Below are positions 2,835 to 30,087 of a stretch of DNA of 64,000 nucleotides, in pieces. The stretch is from Candidatus Parcubacteria bacterium (GTDB lineage Bacteria > Patescibacteriota > Minisyncoccia > Sungbacterales > SURF-37), in the NCBI GenBank assembly GCA_003599755.1, contig QZJO01000011.1, forward strand, positions 2,424-66,423, read 5' to 3'. The notes beneath the pieces are model-generated. The model was given only the letters and a program-made list of their open reading frames with translations. It did not search any database and was not told where the DNA came from. The position numbers and the translations under genes are program-made. Position 1 is the first letter of the stretch. Every line of letters starts with the position of its first letter.

Positions 2835-3407
2835 TCATGCCGAGGATTGGCGGGGGTCCGTCTCGCGTATCGGTACGTTCCGATGCTCCGAAGACGTGGC
2901 GCGCGGCGTCGCGATCCACAGCACGGCGCCGAGGGCGGAGCCGATCGCGCCCGCGGCCAAATCCGTCATGGTATCGGTGAACTCCGTGGCGTATGCGGAA
3001 AGCACCACATCGGCGAGCCACTCGGCAATTTCCCAGAGTCCGGCGAGTGCCAAACCAACGGCCGCGGCAACGGCGGCTGCAGCCCACGCAGGCATGGGAC
3101 GCATGCGGTCAGGAAAGAGCGCGGATCCCGCTAAAAATGCGCATGCGCCGGGGATCATGGTGTGCAGGAATATATCGTACAAGCCGAATCGTCCATAGAG
3201 ATCGAAAAACCATCCCAGCACGCCAAGCATCAACGCGAGCGGTACCAGCGGCGCGAGGTGCGGAGGGATGATCCGGTGCCTCAGTATGAGTGCGATGCCG
3301 CCGAACAAGGATCCGTATCCGAGGACACGCATATGCTCGCCGCGCACGAGCCCCGCGGCGAGTAGTACGGCAACAAGCGCCATGAGCCGCCAGGTACCGG
3401 ATCGCAT
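2835..3407 (-). CDS. Hypothetical polytopic membrane protein (about 190 aa)
   Basis: Hydrophobic helices throughout, starting from MRSGTWRLMALVAVLLAAGL (ATG at 3405-3407). The ORF track's 5' extension to 3689 is Arg/Pro-rich and overlaps the DedA gene, so it was trimmed. Confidence 0.45.
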   Translation of the reverse strand: MRSGTWRLMALVAVLLAAGLVRGEHMRVLGYGSLFGGIALILRHRIIPPHLAPLVPLALMLGVLGWFFDLYGRFGLYDIFLHTMIPGACAFLAGSALFPDRMRPMPAWAAAAVAAAVGLALAGLWEIAEWLADVVLSAYATEFTDTMTDLAAGAIGSALGAVLWIATPRATSSEHRNVPIRETDPRQSSA

Positions 3408-3448
3408 ATTCAAGTAGACGCGCCGATGCGCGGAAATTACCGGCCGCG

Positions 3449-4039
3449 CTAGGAGAAGACGTACTGGAGAAATTCGGCCGCGTGCGGCGCGAGATGCGCG
3501 AGCGATATGTTGAATACGGCATTGCCGAGGACCAGCGGCAGCATGATGCGCCAAAACGGGACGCGCGCGATGCCTGCCGGAATAGTAAGGAAATCGTTCG
3601 AAGCCGGGATGACGCAGCCGTAGGCAAAGCAGACGAACATGAATAACCGCGGACGCTCTATCGCGATCCGGTAGATACGCTGGAACCAAATGCTCGTATG
3701 CTCGGGCAAGAGGGCGCGGCTTTGGTATCCGACAAAATACGATGTCGAATCTCCGGTCGTGACCCCGAGCGTCGCGAGGACGCCGAGGAGCAACGGGTTG
3801 AGCCCGCCCACGGCCAGCGTGATGAGGAGGAGATGATACGGGACAAGGTTGAACGTCGTGAATCCGCCGGCGATCGCCGTGAAGAATATGAGGACGTACG
3901 CATTCTCGACGCCGAGGTATGCGACGATGCGCTCGGGCGTATATACGAGCGAAATGAAAAGCGATATCCCGATGAGTATCGCGAGCGGGAGCAATGCCAA
4001 GAGATACCGCGTCAGTTTTCGTTGCGGGAGCCGAAGCAT
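3449..4039 (-). CDS. DedA / VTT (TVP38/TMEM64) family membrane protein
   Basis: Polytopic protein of DedA size with a VTT-domain-like hydrophobic pattern (YVLIFFTAIAGGF..., GDSTSYFVGY). Confidence 0.6.
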   Translation of the reverse strand: MLRLPQRKLTRYLLALLPLAILIGISLFISLVYTPERIVAYLGVENAYVLIFFTAIAGGFTTFNLVPYHLLLITLAVGGLNPLLLGVLATLGVTTGDSTSYFVGYQSRALLPEHTSIWFQRIYRIAIERPRLFMFVCFAYGCVIPASNDFLTIPAGIARVPFWRIMLPLVLGNAVFNISLAHLAPHAAEFLQYVFS

Positions 4040-23844: not shown

Positions 23845-23977
23845 ATTTCGCACTATATCTGTTGCGGATATAGTTGGTACTCCCCCGCTCTTCGTGCGGT
23901 TTCGCATTGAGCGAAACCAAAAACGCCCCTACGTGGCGTTGAAAAATCATTCGTTTTGAGGCATAATCGAACCGCAT

Positions 23978-24048
23978 TGGGGAGTCGTCTAATGGTAGGA
24001 CATCGCCCTTTGGAGGCGAGTATCGGGGTTCGAATCCCTGCTCCCCAG
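23978..24048 (+). tRNA. tRNA-Gln (anticodon UUG); CCA not encoded
   Basis: Hand-folded cloverleaf: acceptor UGGGGAG/CUCCCCA with U1:A72 and G73 discriminator (as in bacterial tRNA-Gln), D stem GUCU/GGAC, anticodon stem UCGCC/GGCGA with loop CUUUGGA, T arm CGGGG-UUCGAAU-CCCUG. Confidence 0.7.
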
Positions 24049-24428
24049 CAACACATCGGTGCAGTGAGTGTTGACTCCCCACGCCGCAACATGGCACTAT
24101 CGTTGGGTCACGTTGCAATTCGATCTGAAAGAATTTGCGGGCGTTTGTCGGGCGTCCGCCGCATACCAATAGCGCATGTATTCGCATATGATTGACGCAA
24201 TCATTCGCGCAGAGGGTGACGACCAGACCGAACAGGGCGAGGAAACCAAGGAAGGGGGCGAATCGTCCGAAGAGAGCAAATAGGCCAATCCCCGCGCCGG
24301 AATCCGGCGCGGGGATTGCGTTTGGCCGTCACTCTTGGCGGAAATCCGAAATCCTAAAAGCGTTTTGAATTTTTGATCATTCGATACTGTTTCGAGTTTC
24401 GATATTCGTGCTTCGGATTTTATACATG

Positions 24429-25142: not shown

Positions 25143-26232
25143 TGATGATTTCCACTAATGCTAATTCAAGCGGTAACTGCGGAATAGGGCTTCGCTTCGC
25201 CAACTCTGCGGCATCGATGAGTGCGGCAATGGCGCGCGCCAGATCATTCGCGGAATATGCCGCAAGATGGGCGGCCAGCGCCTCGCGGCCTTCGGGCAGC
25301 ATGCTTGCCTCGGGCGCGCCGTCGGGATTGGTGGTGGTCTTTGCCAGAAGCGCGTCGCGGAAAAAGCCGATTAAAAGCTTGGCAAGATAATCCATTTCAT
25401 AGCCGCGGTAGTAGAGCGAATTCAAAAGCTCAATTGCCTCTTTGAGGTGCCGGCGGCCGATATGCTCGGAAAGCGTCAGCAGCGCCTCGCGCTTCGGGAT
25501 ACCGAGGATTTCCTCGACATCGCCCAGCGCGATGGGGTTCGTGCCGGTGGCGAGGATTTTGCCGAGCATGCTTTCGGCGTCGCGCATCGCACCTTCGGCC
25601 ACGAACGCGATCGCGGCCGCGGCGTCCGGTTCGAGCTTCGCGCCTTCGGCTTTGGCGATTGCCAAGATGCGGTCGCGGATCACGGTTTCGCGGGGCCGGC
25701 GGAAATCGAAATGCTGGGTGCGAGAAACAATCGTCGGCAATACTTTGTCGAGTTCCGTGGTCGCGAGGATGAACATCGCGTGGGGTGGCGGCTCTTCAAG
25801 GGTTTTCAAGAGTGCGTTGAATGCATCTTTGGTGAGCTGGTGGACTTCGTCGATGATATAGACCTTCATGCGGCCTTCGGCCGGCGCAAAGCGCACGGCA
25901 TCGCGCAGTTCGCGGATCTCATCGATGCCGCGGTTTGAAGCGGCATCGATCTCGATGAGATTCAGCGCCCGGCCGGCATTGAAGGCCTCGCAGGACGGGC
26001 AGGCGTTGCAGGGCGCTTCTTTCTTGGATCCGGTGACCGTGCAATTCGCGGCTTTGGCGACGATGCGAGCGACCGTGGTCTTGCCCACGCCGCGCGGACC
26101 AGAAAACAGATACGCGTGCGCGACGCGGCCGGATTGGATCTGGCGTTTCAGTACCGAGACGATATGATCCTGCCCCATGACTTCGGCGAAGTCCTTGGGA
26201 CGGTATTTTCGGTACAGTACTTGGTACTCCAT
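25114..26232 (-). CDS. dnaX: DNA polymerase III subunit gamma/tau, short form (372 aa)
   Basis: YRPKDFAEVMGQDHIV, Walker A GPRGVGKTT, zinc module CxxCxxC (CNACPSCEAF), DEVH box (IIDEVHQL) and sensor regions. Confidence 0.9.
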   Translation of the reverse strand: MEYQVLYRKYRPKDFAEVMGQDHIVSVLKRQIQSGRVAHAYLFSGPRGVGKTTVARIVAKAANCTVTGSKKEAPCNACPSCEAFNAGRALNLIEIDAASNRGIDEIRELRDAVRFAPAEGRMKVYIIDEVHQLTKDAFNALLKTLEEPPPHAMFILATTELDKVLPTIVSRTQHFDFRRPRETVIRDRILAIAKAEGAKLEPDAAAAIAFVAEGAMRDAESMLGKILATGTNPIALGDVEEILGIPKREALLTLSEHIGRRHLKEAIELLNSLYYRGYEMDYLAKLLIGFFRDALLAKTTTNPDGAPEASMLPEGREALAAHLAAYSANDLARAIAALIDAAELAKRSPIPQLPLELALVEIINADQENKTA

Positions 26233-26290
26233 AAGAATTTATAATGCGGAATTTAGAGCGCAGAAATATTGCAGCGGGTCGGCAGGTCGT

Positions 26291-26716
26291 CTAATTCTGA
26301 ATTCTTGCTTCTGAATTTTTAACTATGATATAGCGCGTCTCGATCGTCTGCTTGCCGTAGCGGTTTTTTGCCACGAAATCGAGTCGGTTGACGCCGTTAA
26401 ACAGCTGGAGGCGTTCGGAAAATTCACCGGTCGGCGCTATGTACAGCGGCCTGCCGTTGATTGAGACGTCGGCGTCCGGATCCGTGCGGCCGCGCACGTC
26501 ATATACGGTCTCGGCGATGGCGATGTCGCGCTCCGGCGCGATAAGCGTCAAATCGGGCGCAGTGAGAAATCGCGACTCATAGACGAAAAATCCGACAATG
26601 CCGGCCGCGAGTATGACTGCCAGAGCGCGTTTGACGTTTTTACGCGAGACGTATCCTTCGGAAATCGGACGCCGGATCACCTGCATATTGTAGCGCACCG
26701 GCCGGGTATTCCGCAT
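26291..26716 (-). CDS. N-terminally anchored hypothetical protein (141 aa)
   Basis: Single TM (ALAVILAAGIVGFFVY) then a soluble beta-rich domain. Confidence 0.4.
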   Translation of the reverse strand: MRNTRPVRYNMQVIRRPISEGYVSRKNVKRALAVILAAGIVGFFVYESRFLTAPDLTLIAPERDIAIAETVYDVRGRTDPDADVSINGRPLYIAPTGEFSERLQLFNGVNRLDFVAKNRYGKQTIETRYIIVKNSEARIQN

Positions 26717-26771
26717 CTTTACCCAGCCATATTTTGGGGTACGCCATTACGAGGGCTGGGTTTACAGAGTT

Positions 26772-26804
26772 AAAAAACTGCGCTCCGGCCGTGCGGGGCC
26801 GGAG
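26772..26804 (-). terminator. Intrinsic terminator (perfect 8-bp GC stem CTCCGGCC/GGCCGGAG, then a T-run on the minus strand)
   Basis: On the minus strand the hairpin is followed by CGCAGTTTTTT. Lies 25 nt downstream of the small ORF stop. Confidence 0.55.
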
Positions 26805-26828
26805 CGGAAACAAGCGGGGTTCACAGGG

Positions 26829-26960
26829 CTAGCTGCAGCCGTACCTGGCGCAGAAGTCGGACGCGCCGGCGATGCCCAGGATAGCGAGCGCCGCGGCGAG
26901 GGCGAGGTACTCTCGCCAGTGATCTGCGACGTGATCGAGGAAACGGTAGAATCGGTCCAC
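26829..26960 (-). CDS. Small ORF (43 codons, GTG start): (M)DRFYRFLDHVADHWREYLALAAALAILGIAGASDFCARYGCS; candidate small hydrophobic peptide, toxin or bacteriocin-like
   Basis: Not in the ORF track because of the GTG start. GGAGGG RBS 4 nt upstream. Near-consensus sigma-70 promoter upstream. Intrinsic terminator downstream. One predicted TM helix and a C-terminal CxxxGC. Confidence 0.4.
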   Translation of the reverse strand: MDRFYRFLDHVADHWREYLALAAALAILGIAGASDFCARYGCS

Positions 26961-27004
26961 GAAACCCTCCAAGCACGGAAATGAGCTCCACGCTTCTAAA
27001 TATT

Positions 27005-27033
27005 ATTATATACTATATTTATAAATAAATCAA
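27005..27033 (-). promoter_or_regulatory. Near-consensus sigma-70 promoter (TTGATT - 17 nt - TATAAT) in an AT-rich island, driving the small ORF
   Basis: Minus-strand reading TTGATTtatttataaatatagtaTATAATaat. -35 at 27028-27033, -10 at 27005-27010. Local GC is far below the window average. Confidence 0.55.
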
Positions 27034-27050
27034 GAGGCAGGCAGTTTAGC

Positions 27051-27085
27051 AAAAAGATAACCGCCCCGGTGCTGCCGAGGCGGTT
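27051..27085 (-). terminator. Intrinsic terminator for the two-gene small-membrane-protein unit (stem AACCGCC/GGCGGTT, T-run ATCTTTTT on the minus strand)
   Basis: Hairpin 16 nt downstream of the stop of the 27101-27349 gene, followed on the minus strand by TCTTTTTGC. Confidence 0.5.
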
Positions 27086-27100
27086 AGGTTGCTTGTTGGC

Positions 27101-27349
27101 CTAGGCCATTTTCTTCTTGTCTTCTTCCTCCATCTTCTTGAGTGCTTCTTCTTCCCATTTCGGCATGGGACTGGTGAGGTCGGCGAATACCACGATAGGT
27201 AGAAGCGAGCAGAGGAAGAGAGCGAGGAGGAGGCCGCCGCCCGAACGTGCGCCGGGAAAGAGTACGATGAGCAGAATGCCGATGGCTGAAGCTACGGCAT
27301 TCCCCGCGTACCATAGGCATCTGTCTTTTGTCATCTTACGGATGCGCAT
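27101..27349 (-). CDS. Small membrane protein (82 aa) with acidic/lysine-rich C-terminal tail
   Basis: Two hydrophobic helices, then KWEEEALKKMEEEDKKKMA. Confidence 0.4.
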   Translation of the reverse strand: MRIRKMTKDRCLWYAGNAVASAIGILLIVLFPGARSGGGLLLALFLCSLLPIVVFADLTSPMPKWEEEALKKMEEEDKKKMA

Positions 27350-27352
27350 GAC

Positions 27353-27778
27353 TCACCTCCAAGGAAGTTGTAGGACGGAAGCCATACCGACCACCACCCA
27401 GATTGCGAAGAATACGTAGCCGAGATATTTAATGATCTGGTGAGTGGTTGTGCCTTGCCGCGCGTTGATGTACTCGCGACCTCCGAAAATGAAGACTGAT
27501 TGGCTGCTTGCCTGTTCGAGCGCCACAAGCCGGAAGTCCCAGTAGTCCAGCCAGTGGATGCTTCGTCGATTTGTCAGCACCCAGAGTACTGCGAAGTATG
27601 CGCCAAGGGCGCATGCTATCGCCTGCGCACCCGATCCAAACTTCAGATAGGTTACGACAAAGGACAATCCTGCCGAATGGATGAGGAAGAAGAGCTGAGT
27701 CCTGGTCCATCGAAGCGTTGTCTCATTCGTACGGAGCGCGATGAGGCCGGCATACATCGTCCGCTGGTCATCGGTCAT
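27353..27778 (-). CDS. Membrane protein (141 aa, 3-4 TM), unknown function
   Basis: Hydrophobic helices (LFFLIHSAGLSFVVTYL; AIACALGAYFAVLWVL; YLGYVFFAIWVVVGMASVL). Stop-start coupled to the next gene (4-nt gap). Confidence 0.45.
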   Translation of the reverse strand: MTDDQRTMYAGLIALRTNETTLRWTRTQLFFLIHSAGLSFVVTYLKFGSGAQAIACALGAYFAVLWVLTNRRSIHWLDYWDFRLVALEQASSQSVFIFGGREYINARQGTTTHQIIKYLGYVFFAIWVVVGMASVLQLPWR

Positions 27779-27891
27779 CGTCGTCCTCCTGGACGGTGTC
27801 GAAGTGCTCGCGCAAGTATACTACGAAATACAAAATTGTCCAGATATACTATCTGTCTGTAAGCCAATCGGAGAATAAATACTTCGAGATT

Positions 27892-30087
27892 CTACGCCTC
27901 GACGGTCGGTTCTTCGGCCGGCTCCCCTGCTCCTTCGGCTTTGACGAGTACTTCGCGGGGCTTGGCGCCGTCGCCCGGGCCGATAACGCCCCGCTCTTCG
28001 AGAATATCGAGGAGCCGCGCGGCGCGCGCATAGCCGATTTTCAGGCGGCGCTGCAAATATGACGCCGAGGCCTTGCCGGCGCGCACCACCGTGTCGCGCG
28101 CTTCTTCGTAGAGCGGATCGTCGTCGCCGTCCTCGGTGTCATCGCCGCCGAGCGCATCGGCAATCGTGCCCGCGCCGGGCTTGGGTTCGAACATTTCGGT
28201 CTCGGCGGTCTGATCCGGAATAAGATCCACCTGGTCGCGGATGAATTTGACCACGCTTTGGATTTCCTTGTCCGATACGAATCCGCCCTGGATGCGCTTG
28301 GGCTTGGCCGTGTCGCCGGCAAGGAAGAGCATGTCGCCGTTGCCCAACAGTTTTTCGGCGCCGCTGCCGTCCAAGATGGTACGCGAGTCGATCTGCGAGG
28401 CGACCTGGAACGCGACGCGCGAGGTGATGTTGGCCTTGATGAGGCCGGTGATGACTTCGACCGACGGCCGCTGGGTCGCGACGATCAGGTGAATGCCGAC
28501 CGCGCGGGCCATCTGGGCGATGCGCACGATCGAGCCCTCGACTTCGCGCGGAAAGCTCATCATGAGGTCGGCCAATTCGTCGATCACGATCACGAGCCAT
28601 GGCATCGGCTCGGGCTTATCCTCGCCTCTCGTTTTTTTCATGATGCTCTCGTTGTAGGACGCGATGTCGCGCACGCCCGCGGCCGAGAGCACCTGGTAGC
28701 GTTTCTCCATTTCCTTCACCGCCCAGCGCAGCGCCTGGATCATCTTTTTCGAATCGGTGATGGGCGGCGTGAGCAAATGCGGGATGCCTTCGTAGACGGA
28801 AAGTTCCACGCGCTTGGGGTCGAGCATGATGAGTTTGAGCATCTCGGGCGGGTTGCGGTAGAGGAACGATGTGACGATGGCATGGATCCCGACGCTTTTG
28901 CCCGATCCGGTCGCGCCCGCGATCATCATGTGCGGCATTTTCGCGAGGTTGGCGTAGACCGGCGCGCCGGCCACGTCGCGGCCGAGCGCAAAGAGAAGCG
29001 GCGCGGACGATTCCTGGAACACGTCGTGCTCGAACAAACTCCGCAGGCCGACCAGGGCAATGGAGCGGTTCGGCACTTCGATACCGACTAGGGATTTGCC
29101 CGGGATCGGCGCTTCGATCCGGATCGGATGCGCGGCAAGAGCCAAGGCAAGATCGTTTTGCAGGCCGACGATGCGCGCAAGCTTCACGCCTTCGGCCGGC
29201 TTCAATGTATATTGCGTGACGGTCGGGCCGATGGAGATGTCTCCCATTTCGACGTCCACGCCGAAGTTCAGAAGCGTACGCTTGATGATGTTGGCATTGG
29301 CGCGCACATCGCCCGAGGAAGGCGTGCCGCGATCGTCATCCAGAAGATCGAGCGGCGGGAAGCGGTACGCCGAGCGCAGGCGCCGTTTGGCGATGGAAAA
29401 TTCTTCGTCGTCGCCCTTGCGGTCCCCGGGACCGACCGTAACCTTGGAGCCCGACGCGGCCGGAGCGGCGGGTTTGACGGCGACTTTGTCGGCAAGGCCG
29501 GTCACGGCGCTTGCCGCCATGGCAACCGCGCCGGCCGATTCGGGTGCGCCGGTGACAACGGTTTCTTCATCCAGCTTACGGATGCGCCAGATCGGAATGT
29601 TGGCGGCGATGAGAATCGCGACCGCAAAGAGCGCGATCTCGATGACGAGCGCGCCCCAGAACGCGAACGCTTGTTCAAGCGGCCAGTTGGCCGCGTAGCC
29701 GATCCACCCGCCCGTGCGATCCTCGAAAAAGAGTTCGATGAGCGCCAGGCCGGTAATGAGAAACAAGCCCGCCCCGACAAATGAGCCGGCGAGACGCGGC
29801 CGATGGAAACTGCGCACGAGGGATCCGGCGGCGACCAAGAGCGTCAGCGGCGCCAGGAAGTATACGTTGCCGACCGCGAGCGATATGCCGGCGGCGATAT
29901 AGCTGCCGAGCATTCCGGCGAGATTCCAGTATGCAAGCAGCGTGAGAATGGCGAGCGCCGCGCAGAGGATCGCCAGGGCGCTTCGCTTCGTTTCCGGAGC
30001 TAGATGGTCGTGCCAGCGGATACGGGGCGCGTCGTCGTCTAGGTCGTCTTCGTCGCGGCGGCGGCGCTTATGGTCTTTTTTCGCCAT
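27892..30087 (-). CDS. ftsK: DNA translocase FtsK/SpoIIIE
   Basis: N-terminal TM helices, Pro/Ala-rich linker, motor domain with Walker A (IAGATGSGKSVGI) and Walker B (VIVIDELADL), and C-terminal gamma winged-helix region. Start set at ATG 30085-30087 (MAKKDHKRRRR); the ORF track begins at a TTG at 30123. Confidence 0.9.
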   Translation of the reverse strand: MAKKDHKRRRRDEDDLDDDAPRIRWHDHLAPETKRSALAILCAALAILTLLAYWNLAGMLGSYIAAGISLAVGNVYFLAPLTLLVAAGSLVRSFHRPRLAGSFVGAGLFLITGLALIELFFEDRTGGWIGYAANWPLEQAFAFWGALVIEIALFAVAILIAANIPIWRIRKLDEETVVTGAPESAGAVAMAASAVTGLADKVAVKPAAPAASGSKVTVGPGDRKGDDEEFSIAKRRLRSAYRFPPLDLLDDDRGTPSSGDVRANANIIKRTLLNFGVDVEMGDISIGPTVTQYTLKPAEGVKLARIVGLQNDLALALAAHPIRIEAPIPGKSLVGIEVPNRSIALVGLRSLFEHDVFQESSAPLLFALGRDVAGAPVYANLAKMPHMMIAGATGSGKSVGIHAIVTSFLYRNPPEMLKLIMLDPKRVELSVYEGIPHLLTPPITDSKKMIQALRWAVKEMEKRYQVLSAAGVRDIASYNESIMKKTRGEDKPEPMPWLVIVIDELADLMMSFPREVEGSIVRIAQMARAVGIHLIVATQRPSVEVITGLIKANITSRVAFQVASQIDSRTILDGSGAEKLLGNGDMLFLAGDTAKPKRIQGGFVSDKEIQSVVKFIRDQVDLIPDQTAETEMFEPKPGAGTIADALGGDDTEDGDDDPLYEEARDTVVRAGKASASYLQRRLKIGYARAARLLDILEERGVIGPGDGAKPREVLVKAEGAGEPAEEPTVEA

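Follow-up and report, generated by a model that had tools for sequence, protein, structure and literature searches.

AcrZ, MgtS, KdpF and CydX are small single-pass membrane proteins that modulate larger membrane proteins, and they make up a functional class, not a sequence family. Also of interest here is the SmeA-SffA system of Streptomyces coelicolor, in which a small membrane protein targets a translocase of the FtsK/SpoIIIE family to septa, smeA being co-transcribed upstream of sffA. PMC11539335 characterizes small membrane proteins, in general terms, as regulators of larger proteins of the membrane. In the present study, we analysed a 43-codon open reading frame (ORF) located between ftsK and p141-dnaX, on the minus strand of contig QZJO01000011.1 from the genome of an uncultivated member of the Parcubacteria (candidate phyla radiation, CPR; Patescibacteria). 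The ORF lies within a stretch of 64 kb, which was analysed as a whole, is referred to below as the window, and is also present as the JGI metagenome contig Ga0104756_1000081. An earlier note on this DNA had offered three options for the ORF, i.e. a type-I-toxin-like module, a bacteriocin-plus-immunity module or a small regulatory membrane peptide; it is the last of these that the data fit.

The explanation that we prefer, which taken as a whole we rate slightly better than an even guess, is that the ORF encodes a monocistronic small single-pass membrane protein. It would form a self-contained single-gene transcription unit, in which an A/T-rich near-consensus sigma-70 promoter, probably constitutive and strong, gives rise to a transcript of ~225 nt, a strong Shine-Dalgarno sequence and a GTG codon direct the synthesis of a protein of 43 residues, and transcription stops at a strong hairpin terminator. 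From the sequence we infer that the ORF is transcribed and translated, and that its product is inserted into the membrane and acts in a regulatory or accessory mode. By analogy with the proteins named above, it may sit in the cell membrane and bind or tune a larger membrane component. That it is a small protein integral to the membrane, and acts in the membrane of its own cell, is held a little more tentatively, at just under an even chance. The product is a new, lineage-restricted predicted small membrane protein with two known members, within the known class of small bacterial membrane proteins.

The peptide unit and its conservation in a related lineage

The unit comprises a promoter, a ribosome-binding site (RBS), a start codon with its reading frame and a terminator (Table 1), all of which are conserved in a related lineage, and it is not linked to the genes 8xMP and p82 that separate it from ftsK in the window. 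A word-indexed search of 5.8 billion proteins returned only the query peptide itself; an all-against-all HMMER comparison of 1.84 billion cluster representatives revealed one relative, P0011 (51 amino acids, aa; 54% identity; E 4e-6 library-wide), with the sequence MDRFLDHMEEYWKTYLALVVVLVLLGWAGTSDLCTRVNCDDVVQSDTPPRR. P0011 is carried by four contigs (L093-L096) of a related Parcubacteria lineage, in the order ftsK 3' end, hairpin, TTGATT-17-TATAAT, GCTTGGAGGG, ATG, peptide, terminator, p141 homologue, dnaX. The homologue lies at the same place, between ftsK and p141-dnaX, which answers the question of synteny raised by the earlier note. The aa identity between the relative and the window is 91% for ftsK, 78% for p141 and 89% for dnaX, and the synonymous divergence (dS) of the flanking genes is 0.7-1.2. 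In L094, ftsK abuts the peptide promoter directly, without 8xMP or p82 in between, and the -35 hexamer of this promoter is part of the ftsK terminator hairpin. A hidden Markov model of the two peptides, compared with all six-frame ORFs of the window and of 104 loci, detected no paralogues and no further relatives, and viral contigs, for which the promoter DNA and the peptide alignment served as queries, yielded no relative either.

The AT-rich island upstream of the ORF has, over positions 26994-27033, a GC content of 7.5%, which makes it the most AT-rich 40-mer of the window (next lowest 22.5%). The very low GC content described earlier was thus borne out by the windowed analysis, whereas the GC content of the window as a whole, given as over 60%, is 59.1%. 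The promoter TTGATT-17-TATAAT had been singled out as the best in the window. Matches to 10 of the 12 consensus positions are by themselves near chance (8 found vs 5.4 expected in 14 kb), and four occur in the window; only this one combines a perfect -10 with a 17-nt spacer (94% A/T). Identical -35 and -10 hexamers with identical spacing are present at positions 688-716 of L094, within a 44-bp AT block, CTCTTGATTTAT(T/A)TATAAATATAGTATATAATAATATT(T/A)AG, which is identical at 42 of 44 positions in the two genomes, both differences being A/T swaps. Where the flanking genes have four-fold degenerate sites, only 28% of the A or T residues of the window are kept in the relative (36 of 53 turned into G or C), and under neutrality the identity of the AT block has P ~5e-21. 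The promoter is therefore more than a chance match, and its description as a dedicated strong promoter agrees with its maintenance by selection.

A base-specific operator in the promoter spacer was considered and found unneeded: if the site simply stays A/T, 88% identity is expected and 42 of 44 is unremarkable (P = 0.10). This points to selection on A/T-richness across the whole peptide promoter and not necessarily on a specific operator. The predicted transcription start lies 7-8 nt past the -10 hexamer. The position of the conserved AT block beside ftsK also brought a dif site (XerC/XerD) into consideration, which was rejected since the block lacks the ATAA-N6-TTATG core even at one mismatch. 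There are four copies of the heptamer TAGTATA in the window (0.64 expected), three of which (27817-27851, 27009-27015) lie in the two promoter regions of the locus, two in that of 8xMP and one in the peptide promoter spacer. It is also worth recording that L093 and L096, which are independent assemblies, are both interrupted at one and the same base of the AT-rich promoter (both contigs begin AGTATATAATAATATT), possibly through a drop of coverage in AT-rich DNA or a strain-level structural difference upstream, e.g. presence or absence of the cassette described below.

The ORF, with the translation (M)DRFYRFLDHVADHWREYLALAAALAILGIAGASDFCARYGCS, has the GGAGGG RBS and GTG start that had been assigned to it, the RBS being placed 4 nt before GTG 26960 (5 nt counted from the GGAGG core). 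The GCTTGGAGGG block is kept in L094, the rest of the 5' untranslated region (UTR) having diverged. The GTG of the window aligns with the ATG of the relative, and in the relative the TTG start (47 aa) that the gene caller picked is not in frame; the 43-codon reading is therefore the right one. The ORF had been described as missed by the ORF track; in fact, both the ORF tool and JGI list it, with the TTG start. Over their aligned part, the two coding sequences differ by a single indel, a tandem duplication of 9 nt (GACCGATTC TACCGTTTC) that keeps the frame and yields DRF-YRF. The conservation of the frame, which the earlier note had made decisive, was observed together with that of the start and the RBS in the sole homologous locus.

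Codon usage is gene-like in the proposed frame alone, with a score of 0.24 (20th percentile among segments of 43 codons from true genes), compared with -0.25 and -0.48 for the other two frames; a score of 0.24 is reached by only 1-3% of segments read off-frame. The GC content at the three codon positions (0.67/0.49/0.84, i.e. 0.84 at the third) follows the pattern of genes (0.62/0.46/0.72). Comparison with P0011 by the Nei-Gojobori method gave a nonsynonymous divergence (dN) of 0.41, a dS of 0.92 and a ratio (omega) of 0.45 (Fisher P = 0.03). Among the three frames, the proposed one has the highest aa identity and the lowest ratio of nonsynonymous to synonymous differences (pN/pS 0.56 vs 0.78 and 1.43). 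An overlapping ORF in the +1 frame (56 aa in the window, 49 aa in L094) was rejected on its codon score (-0.48) and pN/pS (1.43). These comparisons suggest that the frame is under purifying selection, though weak, and we are confident that the ORF represents a real protein-coding gene. The predicted tryptic peptides of its product include FLDHVADHWR and EYLALAAALAILGIAGASDFCAR.

The peptide unit has its own terminator, as had been claimed, consisting of a hairpin of -21.7 kcal/mol and six T. L094 has kept it, with one stem pair altered from C:G to T:A in a compensatory manner. The terminator is unidirectional, i.e. its stem has no preceding A-run. In both genomes the stop codon is separated from the terminator stem by 22-23 nt (26807-26828 in the window, 917-938 in L094), despite unrelated intervening sequence and an ORF that is 11 codons longer C-terminally in the relative.

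The promoter and the terminator are far better conserved than the coding sequence, which would also be compatible with an RNA or regulatory element, i.e. a small RNA, or a promoter with an attenuating terminator feeding p141-dnaX, in which the ORF is incidental or weakly selected. The constant gap between stop codon and stem would fit this reading as well, as would the lack of a clear promoter or Shine-Dalgarno sequence of p141 itself. However, Rfam 15 covariance models gave nothing meaningful over 26200-27950 at E up to 10, and the folds of the transcripts of the two genomes are not significantly better than those of shuffled sequences (z = -1.26 and -1.65), with nothing shared except the terminator. 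Known non-coding RNAs, such as the signal recognition particle (SRP) RNA, which often adjoins dnaX, 6S RNA and others, were rejected on the same grounds. The conserved RBS, start and frame, the in-frame indel, the gene-like codon bias and the low pN/pS speak for a protein product, and read-through should be low given the strength of the hairpin and its six T. We regard an RNA or regulatory element as decidedly improbable.

The same RNA-level analysis bears on a type-I-toxin-like function, in which the peptide would depolarise or damage the membrane of its producer and would normally be restrained by an RNA antitoxin or through the structure of its mRNA. Such loci are resembled by the small size, the single hydrophobic helix and the monocistronic organization with its own promoter and terminator, and also by the lineage-restricted distribution and the position in a variable spacer between core genes. 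Furthermore, in the minimum-energy fold of the window transcript the 5' end pairs with the 3' region, and GGAGG with codons 9-10. Yet this pairing of the RBS differs between the folds of the window and the relative, neither of which, as mentioned, is better than shuffles. In neither the window nor L094 did the consensus scan detect a promoter-like site on the strand opposite the ORF, within it or nearby (an RNA that is weak or encoded in trans could escape such a scan), and the terminator is not bidirectional. In addition, no toxin family of Pfam, NCBIfam or PADLOC was matched, the gene is present in single copy, no paralogue having been detected in the window or the 104 loci, and its RBS is strong and conserved. 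A type-I-toxin-like peptide thus seems quite unlikely.

The predicted product

Residues ~2-17 of the peptide form a strongly amphipathic helix (hydrophobic moment 0.6-0.75), and the sole hydrophobic span covers residues ~19-37 (Kyte-Doolittle mean of 1.95-2.05 in 19-residue windows; 1.95 over 19-37), of which residues ~19-35 would cross the membrane. AlphaFold (AF2) predicted a single helix over residues 2-40, with a mean confidence score (pLDDT) of 83. The hydrophobic core is followed by A-G-A (A-G-T in the relative) and by the C-terminal tail SDFCARYGCS, of which SD, R and both cysteines are kept in the relative (SD-x-C-x-R-x-x-C). The single helix and the C-terminal cysteine pair recognized in the earlier note were found; the motif given there as CxxxGC is in fact C-x4-C (CARYGC). 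The best conserved part of the peptide is its N-terminal region, which is net acidic. At E up to 1 the peptide has no match in Pfam, NCBIfam or PADLOC, and its two matches in PHROGs were at chance level (E 0.44 and 0.48), with no toxin family among them. Overall, the PADLOC defence library gave no matches, and those to the PHROGs phage library had E values of 0.13 or worse.

Several observations weigh against the explanation preferred here. The hydrophobic run up to S-D is just 15-16 residues long; this is little for a helix that crosses the membrane, and it is the length that the core of a signal peptide typically has. From the distribution of charges (N-terminus net -1/-2, C-terminus 0) no clear topology emerges. 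Moreover, the peptide evolves ~4 times faster than its neighbours (omega of 0.45 vs ~0.1 for genes with dS of 0.7-1.2), which is compatible with weak constraint, and the family has two members only, so that the statistics are thin (P = 0.03; 13/11/17 differences at the three codon positions).

The short core, followed by a small-x-small motif and by SD-x-C-x-R-x-x-C with a tail of variable length, raises the possibility of a secreted or processed peptide. The first ~33 residues would then serve as a signal of the Sec type or as a leader, with cleavage behind A-G-A (in the relative, A-G-T), and the product would be the 10-residue disulfide-looped SDFCARYGCS (21 residues in the relative), acting as an extracellular signal or antimicrobial. 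In precursors of secreted peptides the N-terminal part is conserved, and the C-terminal part evolves fast but with its pair of cysteines fixed; the conservation pattern observed here is of this kind, and the evolutionary rate is high. On the other hand, the region before the core is long (14-17 residues), net negative and the best conserved, unlike the n-regions of Sec signals, and this conserved acidic part therefore speaks against a signal peptide of the plain Sec kind. Position -1 is occupied by T in the relative. There is no linked transporter, immunity, modification or AgrB-like gene (the flanks in L094 are ftsK and p141-dnaX only, and the membrane proteins adjacent in the window are not conserved neighbours), no bacteriocin or pheromone family was matched, and viral contigs held no relative. 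Release of a processed peptide therefore appears improbable.

In broader terms, we consider it fairly unlikely that an episymbiotic CPR bacterium uses the peptide as an effector, exported or membrane-active. If it did, the peptide would be the first type-I-toxin-like one described in CPR, or a released disulfide-looped SDFCARYGCS acting on neighbour or host cells, and an arms race or signalling specificity would explain why it evolves fast while its cysteine pair stays fixed.

The 8xMP-p82 cassette and the ftsK-p141 spacer

The two genes upstream of the peptide unit were found where the earlier note had placed them, separated by 3 nt (Table 1). The 141-aa protein, described there as having no recognisable family, matches Pfam PF24838 (8xMP, an octameric membrane protein family unrelated to the peptide) with 42.4 bits against a cut-off of 30 (E 7.8e-11, model positions 4-135/136). 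Besides the protein of the window, seven homologues were identified (40-77% identity), which share an invariant TLRWTRTQLFFLIHSA motif, and all eight proteins returned carry the same precomputed Pfam label. The AF2 model (pLDDT 86) consists of a long helical hairpin and a C-terminal membrane helix; neither a sequence nor a fold match was found in the PDB, nor any paper on the family in the literature that was searched. The 8xMP protein also showed sub-threshold similarity (E 0.03 in Pfam, 0.02 in NCBIfam) to SLATT_3, a two-helix membrane effector domain of conflict systems.

A coupled gene for a membrane protein of 74-98 aa follows 8xMP in all three of the homologue contexts examined (P0004, P0007, P0009). 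For p82, the word-indexed protein search returned only the protein itself, and tblastn revealed a 67% identical partner in L082/L083. The homologues reside (i) between rpsT and uvrB (L084-L089), (ii) beside a YafQ-family toxin-antitoxin pair (L082/L083) and (iii) before a gene for a 624-aa protein (L090-L092). L082, whose 8xMP is 77% identical to that of the window, carries the cassette between a 185-aa ORF (9-566), which runs off the 5' end of the contig, and a toxin-antitoxin-like pair consisting of an 88-aa gene and a YafQ-family toxin gene (1743-2266), a context of the variable-island type. The DNA homology between the window and L082 extends from near the promoter-like site of the cassette to exactly past the T-run of its terminator, and the 27086-27058 terminator therefore belongs to the 8xMP cassette. 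Both intrinsic terminators that were said to bracket the peptide unit are present (each ~-21 kcal/mol, with T-runs), but only the downstream one is its own.

The earlier note had considered the peptide and the two membrane proteins as a possible module, which would be a three-gene toxin or bacteriocin-plus-immunity system. This would be in line with their same-strand adjacency in the window genome and with all three products being membrane proteins. Against it, the relative has the peptide unit without 8xMP and p82 at that junction, 8xMP and its partner occur in the three other, unrelated contexts without a peptide homologue, and the cassette has its own promoter-like site and a terminator at which homology ends. 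We regard such a module as highly improbable. Instead, 8xMP-p82 appears to be an independently relocating two-gene cassette that is not functionally coupled to the peptide, and it would have been inserted between ftsK and the pre-existing peptide unit in the lineage of the window, or lost from the relative.

Table 1. Features of the ftsK-dnaX locus and adjacent genes (positions in the window)
Feature	Position	Strand	Remarks
ftsK	30123-27892	minus	Conserved upstream anchor of the locus
Promoter-like site of the 8xMP cassette, TGGACA-16-TATACT	27842-27815	minus	Promoter scan; homology with L082 begins around here
8xMP gene, 141 aa, Pfam PF24838	27778-27353	minus	Pfam match
p82 gene, 82 aa, two-helix membrane protein	27349-27101	minus	3-nt gap after 8xMP gene, translationally coupled
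8xMP cassette terminator	27086-27049 (hairpin 27086-27058 + T-run)	minus	Hairpin ~-21 kcal/mol
AT-rich island	27040-26994		7.5% GC over 26994-27033
Sigma-70-type promoter (predicted)	27033-27005 (-35 TTGATT 27033-27028, 17-nt spacer, -10 TATAAT 27010-27005)	minus	
Predicted 5' UTR, ~37 nt	26997-26961	minus	Includes GGAGGG RBS 26970-26965
CDS (coding sequence) of the 43-aa peptide	26960-26829 (GTG 26960, TAG 26831-26829)	minus	
Peptide terminator	26806-26772 (hairpin 26806-26781 + T-run)	minus	10-bp stem, 9 GC pairs, -21.7 kcal/mol, then TTTTTT
p141 gene	26686 (or called start 26716) to 26291	minus	Membrane anchor and Glucodextran_B-like domain
dnaX	26232-25114	minus	
HAD hydrolase	25142-24429	minus	

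Downstream of the peptide unit lies p141, which encodes an N-terminal membrane anchor and a Glucodextran_B-like beta domain (Pfam PF09136, E 7.6e-10). Its true start is probably ATG 26686 (or GTG 26680) and not the called ATG 26716: the homologue in L094 begins at the former position (MQVIRRP vs MIRRP), and the upstream stretch is non-coding there. No clear Shine-Dalgarno sequence was found for p141 in the window or L094, and no clear promoter of its own; a conserved TACAAT box is present just upstream of it. A p141-type protein is encoded directly downstream of ftsK across a Parcubacteria clade (L097-L104; FtsK identity to 65%, 44% in L104), and this conserved adjacency suggests a functional link between the two genes.

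A p141-anchored metagenome scan revealed eight loci with ftsK-p141 synteny, none of which carries the peptide. In relatives with FtsK identity of 65-74% the spacer is 33-80 bp long (L100-L102), contains a ~140-bp palindromic element (L097), or holds a 92-aa ORF (L099) or a gene for a 182-aa secreted-looking protein (L103), with no peptide homologue in any of them. Among dnaX-anchored loci of 80 reference genomes none of the four small genes was found near dnaX, the anchor being too distant; the closest reference-genome DnaX (68% identity) comes from metagenome-assembled genomes of the Wildermuthbacteria/Sungbacteria type. As the peptide is absent from the varied spacers of relatives, it appears to be a young, lineage-restricted gene in a spacer that has repeatedly accepted insertions.

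Other small elements were noticed in this region. Between the peptide terminator and p141 lies a 43-nt hairpin-forming segment (26718-26760, minus strand; CCCAGCC...GGCTGGG, with TAAA on both sides), which is missing from the otherwise homologous L094 and looks like a miniature insertion with a target-site duplication. L094 contains, at ~1012-1153, an element with the terminal inverted repeats CCCAGTAGTACAACTTT...AAAGTTGTACTACCGGG, and L097 a long palindrome around GACTACCGAGTTAGCACAGAAA at ~3305-3480. These two elements (~135-175 bp, with terminal inverted repeats) differ from each other, and both reside in the ftsK-p141 region. The spacer thus seems to be a hotspot for small insertions. Further downstream, a tRNA-Gln (UUG) gene is present on the plus strand (23939-24049, including a preceding 10/12 promoter match, TTGAAA-17-CATAAT); the tRNA, at 23978, is the sole match at the gathering score of Rfam 15 and the sole RNA gene detected in the window.

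Significance and comparison with known systems

Genome annotation systematically overlooks small proteins, and the ORF described here is recorded in the protein collection from JGI only, NCBI listing both neighbouring genes but not the ORF. CPR bacteria have tiny genomes; a strongly promoted gene that is kept in such a genome together with its selected promoter is therefore likely to matter to the cell. The peptide alone opens no long-standing question and is a candidate for small-protein catalogues. The case also shows what one homologue in synteny can decide for a small gene, namely its start codon, its reading frame and its independence from its neighbours.

In comparison with the type I toxins Hok, Ldr, TisB, Fst and TxpA, the peptide has in common a small hydrophobic single helix, a stand-alone unit at a variable site and a patchy distribution; it differs in having no detectable antisense or overlapping RNA gene, no conserved translation-blocking fold, an exposed Shine-Dalgarno sequence and a single copy. 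With class II bacteriocins, pheromones and AgrD-like precursors it shares short length, a hydrophobic or amphipathic N-terminal part and a short, variable, cysteine-containing C-terminal part, whereas its N-terminal region is long, acidic and conserved, and neither a double-glycine leader nor a linked transporter, immunity or AgrB-type gene is present.

The locus resembles SmeA-SffA in that a gene for a small membrane protein adjoins a gene of the FtsK family. Unlike smeA, the peptide gene lies downstream of ftsK, behind a terminator and with its own promoter, and its adjacency to ftsK was seen in two lineages only. From the class of AcrZ, MgtS, KdpF and CydX the peptide is set apart by its monocistronic organization, an unusually strong AT-rich promoter, a conserved C-x4-C tail and an occurrence in two Parcubacteria lineages only, and it has no sequence similarity to any member. 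What it shares with them is a length of <50 residues, one hydrophobic helix, no enzymatic domain and a small ORF with its own RBS.

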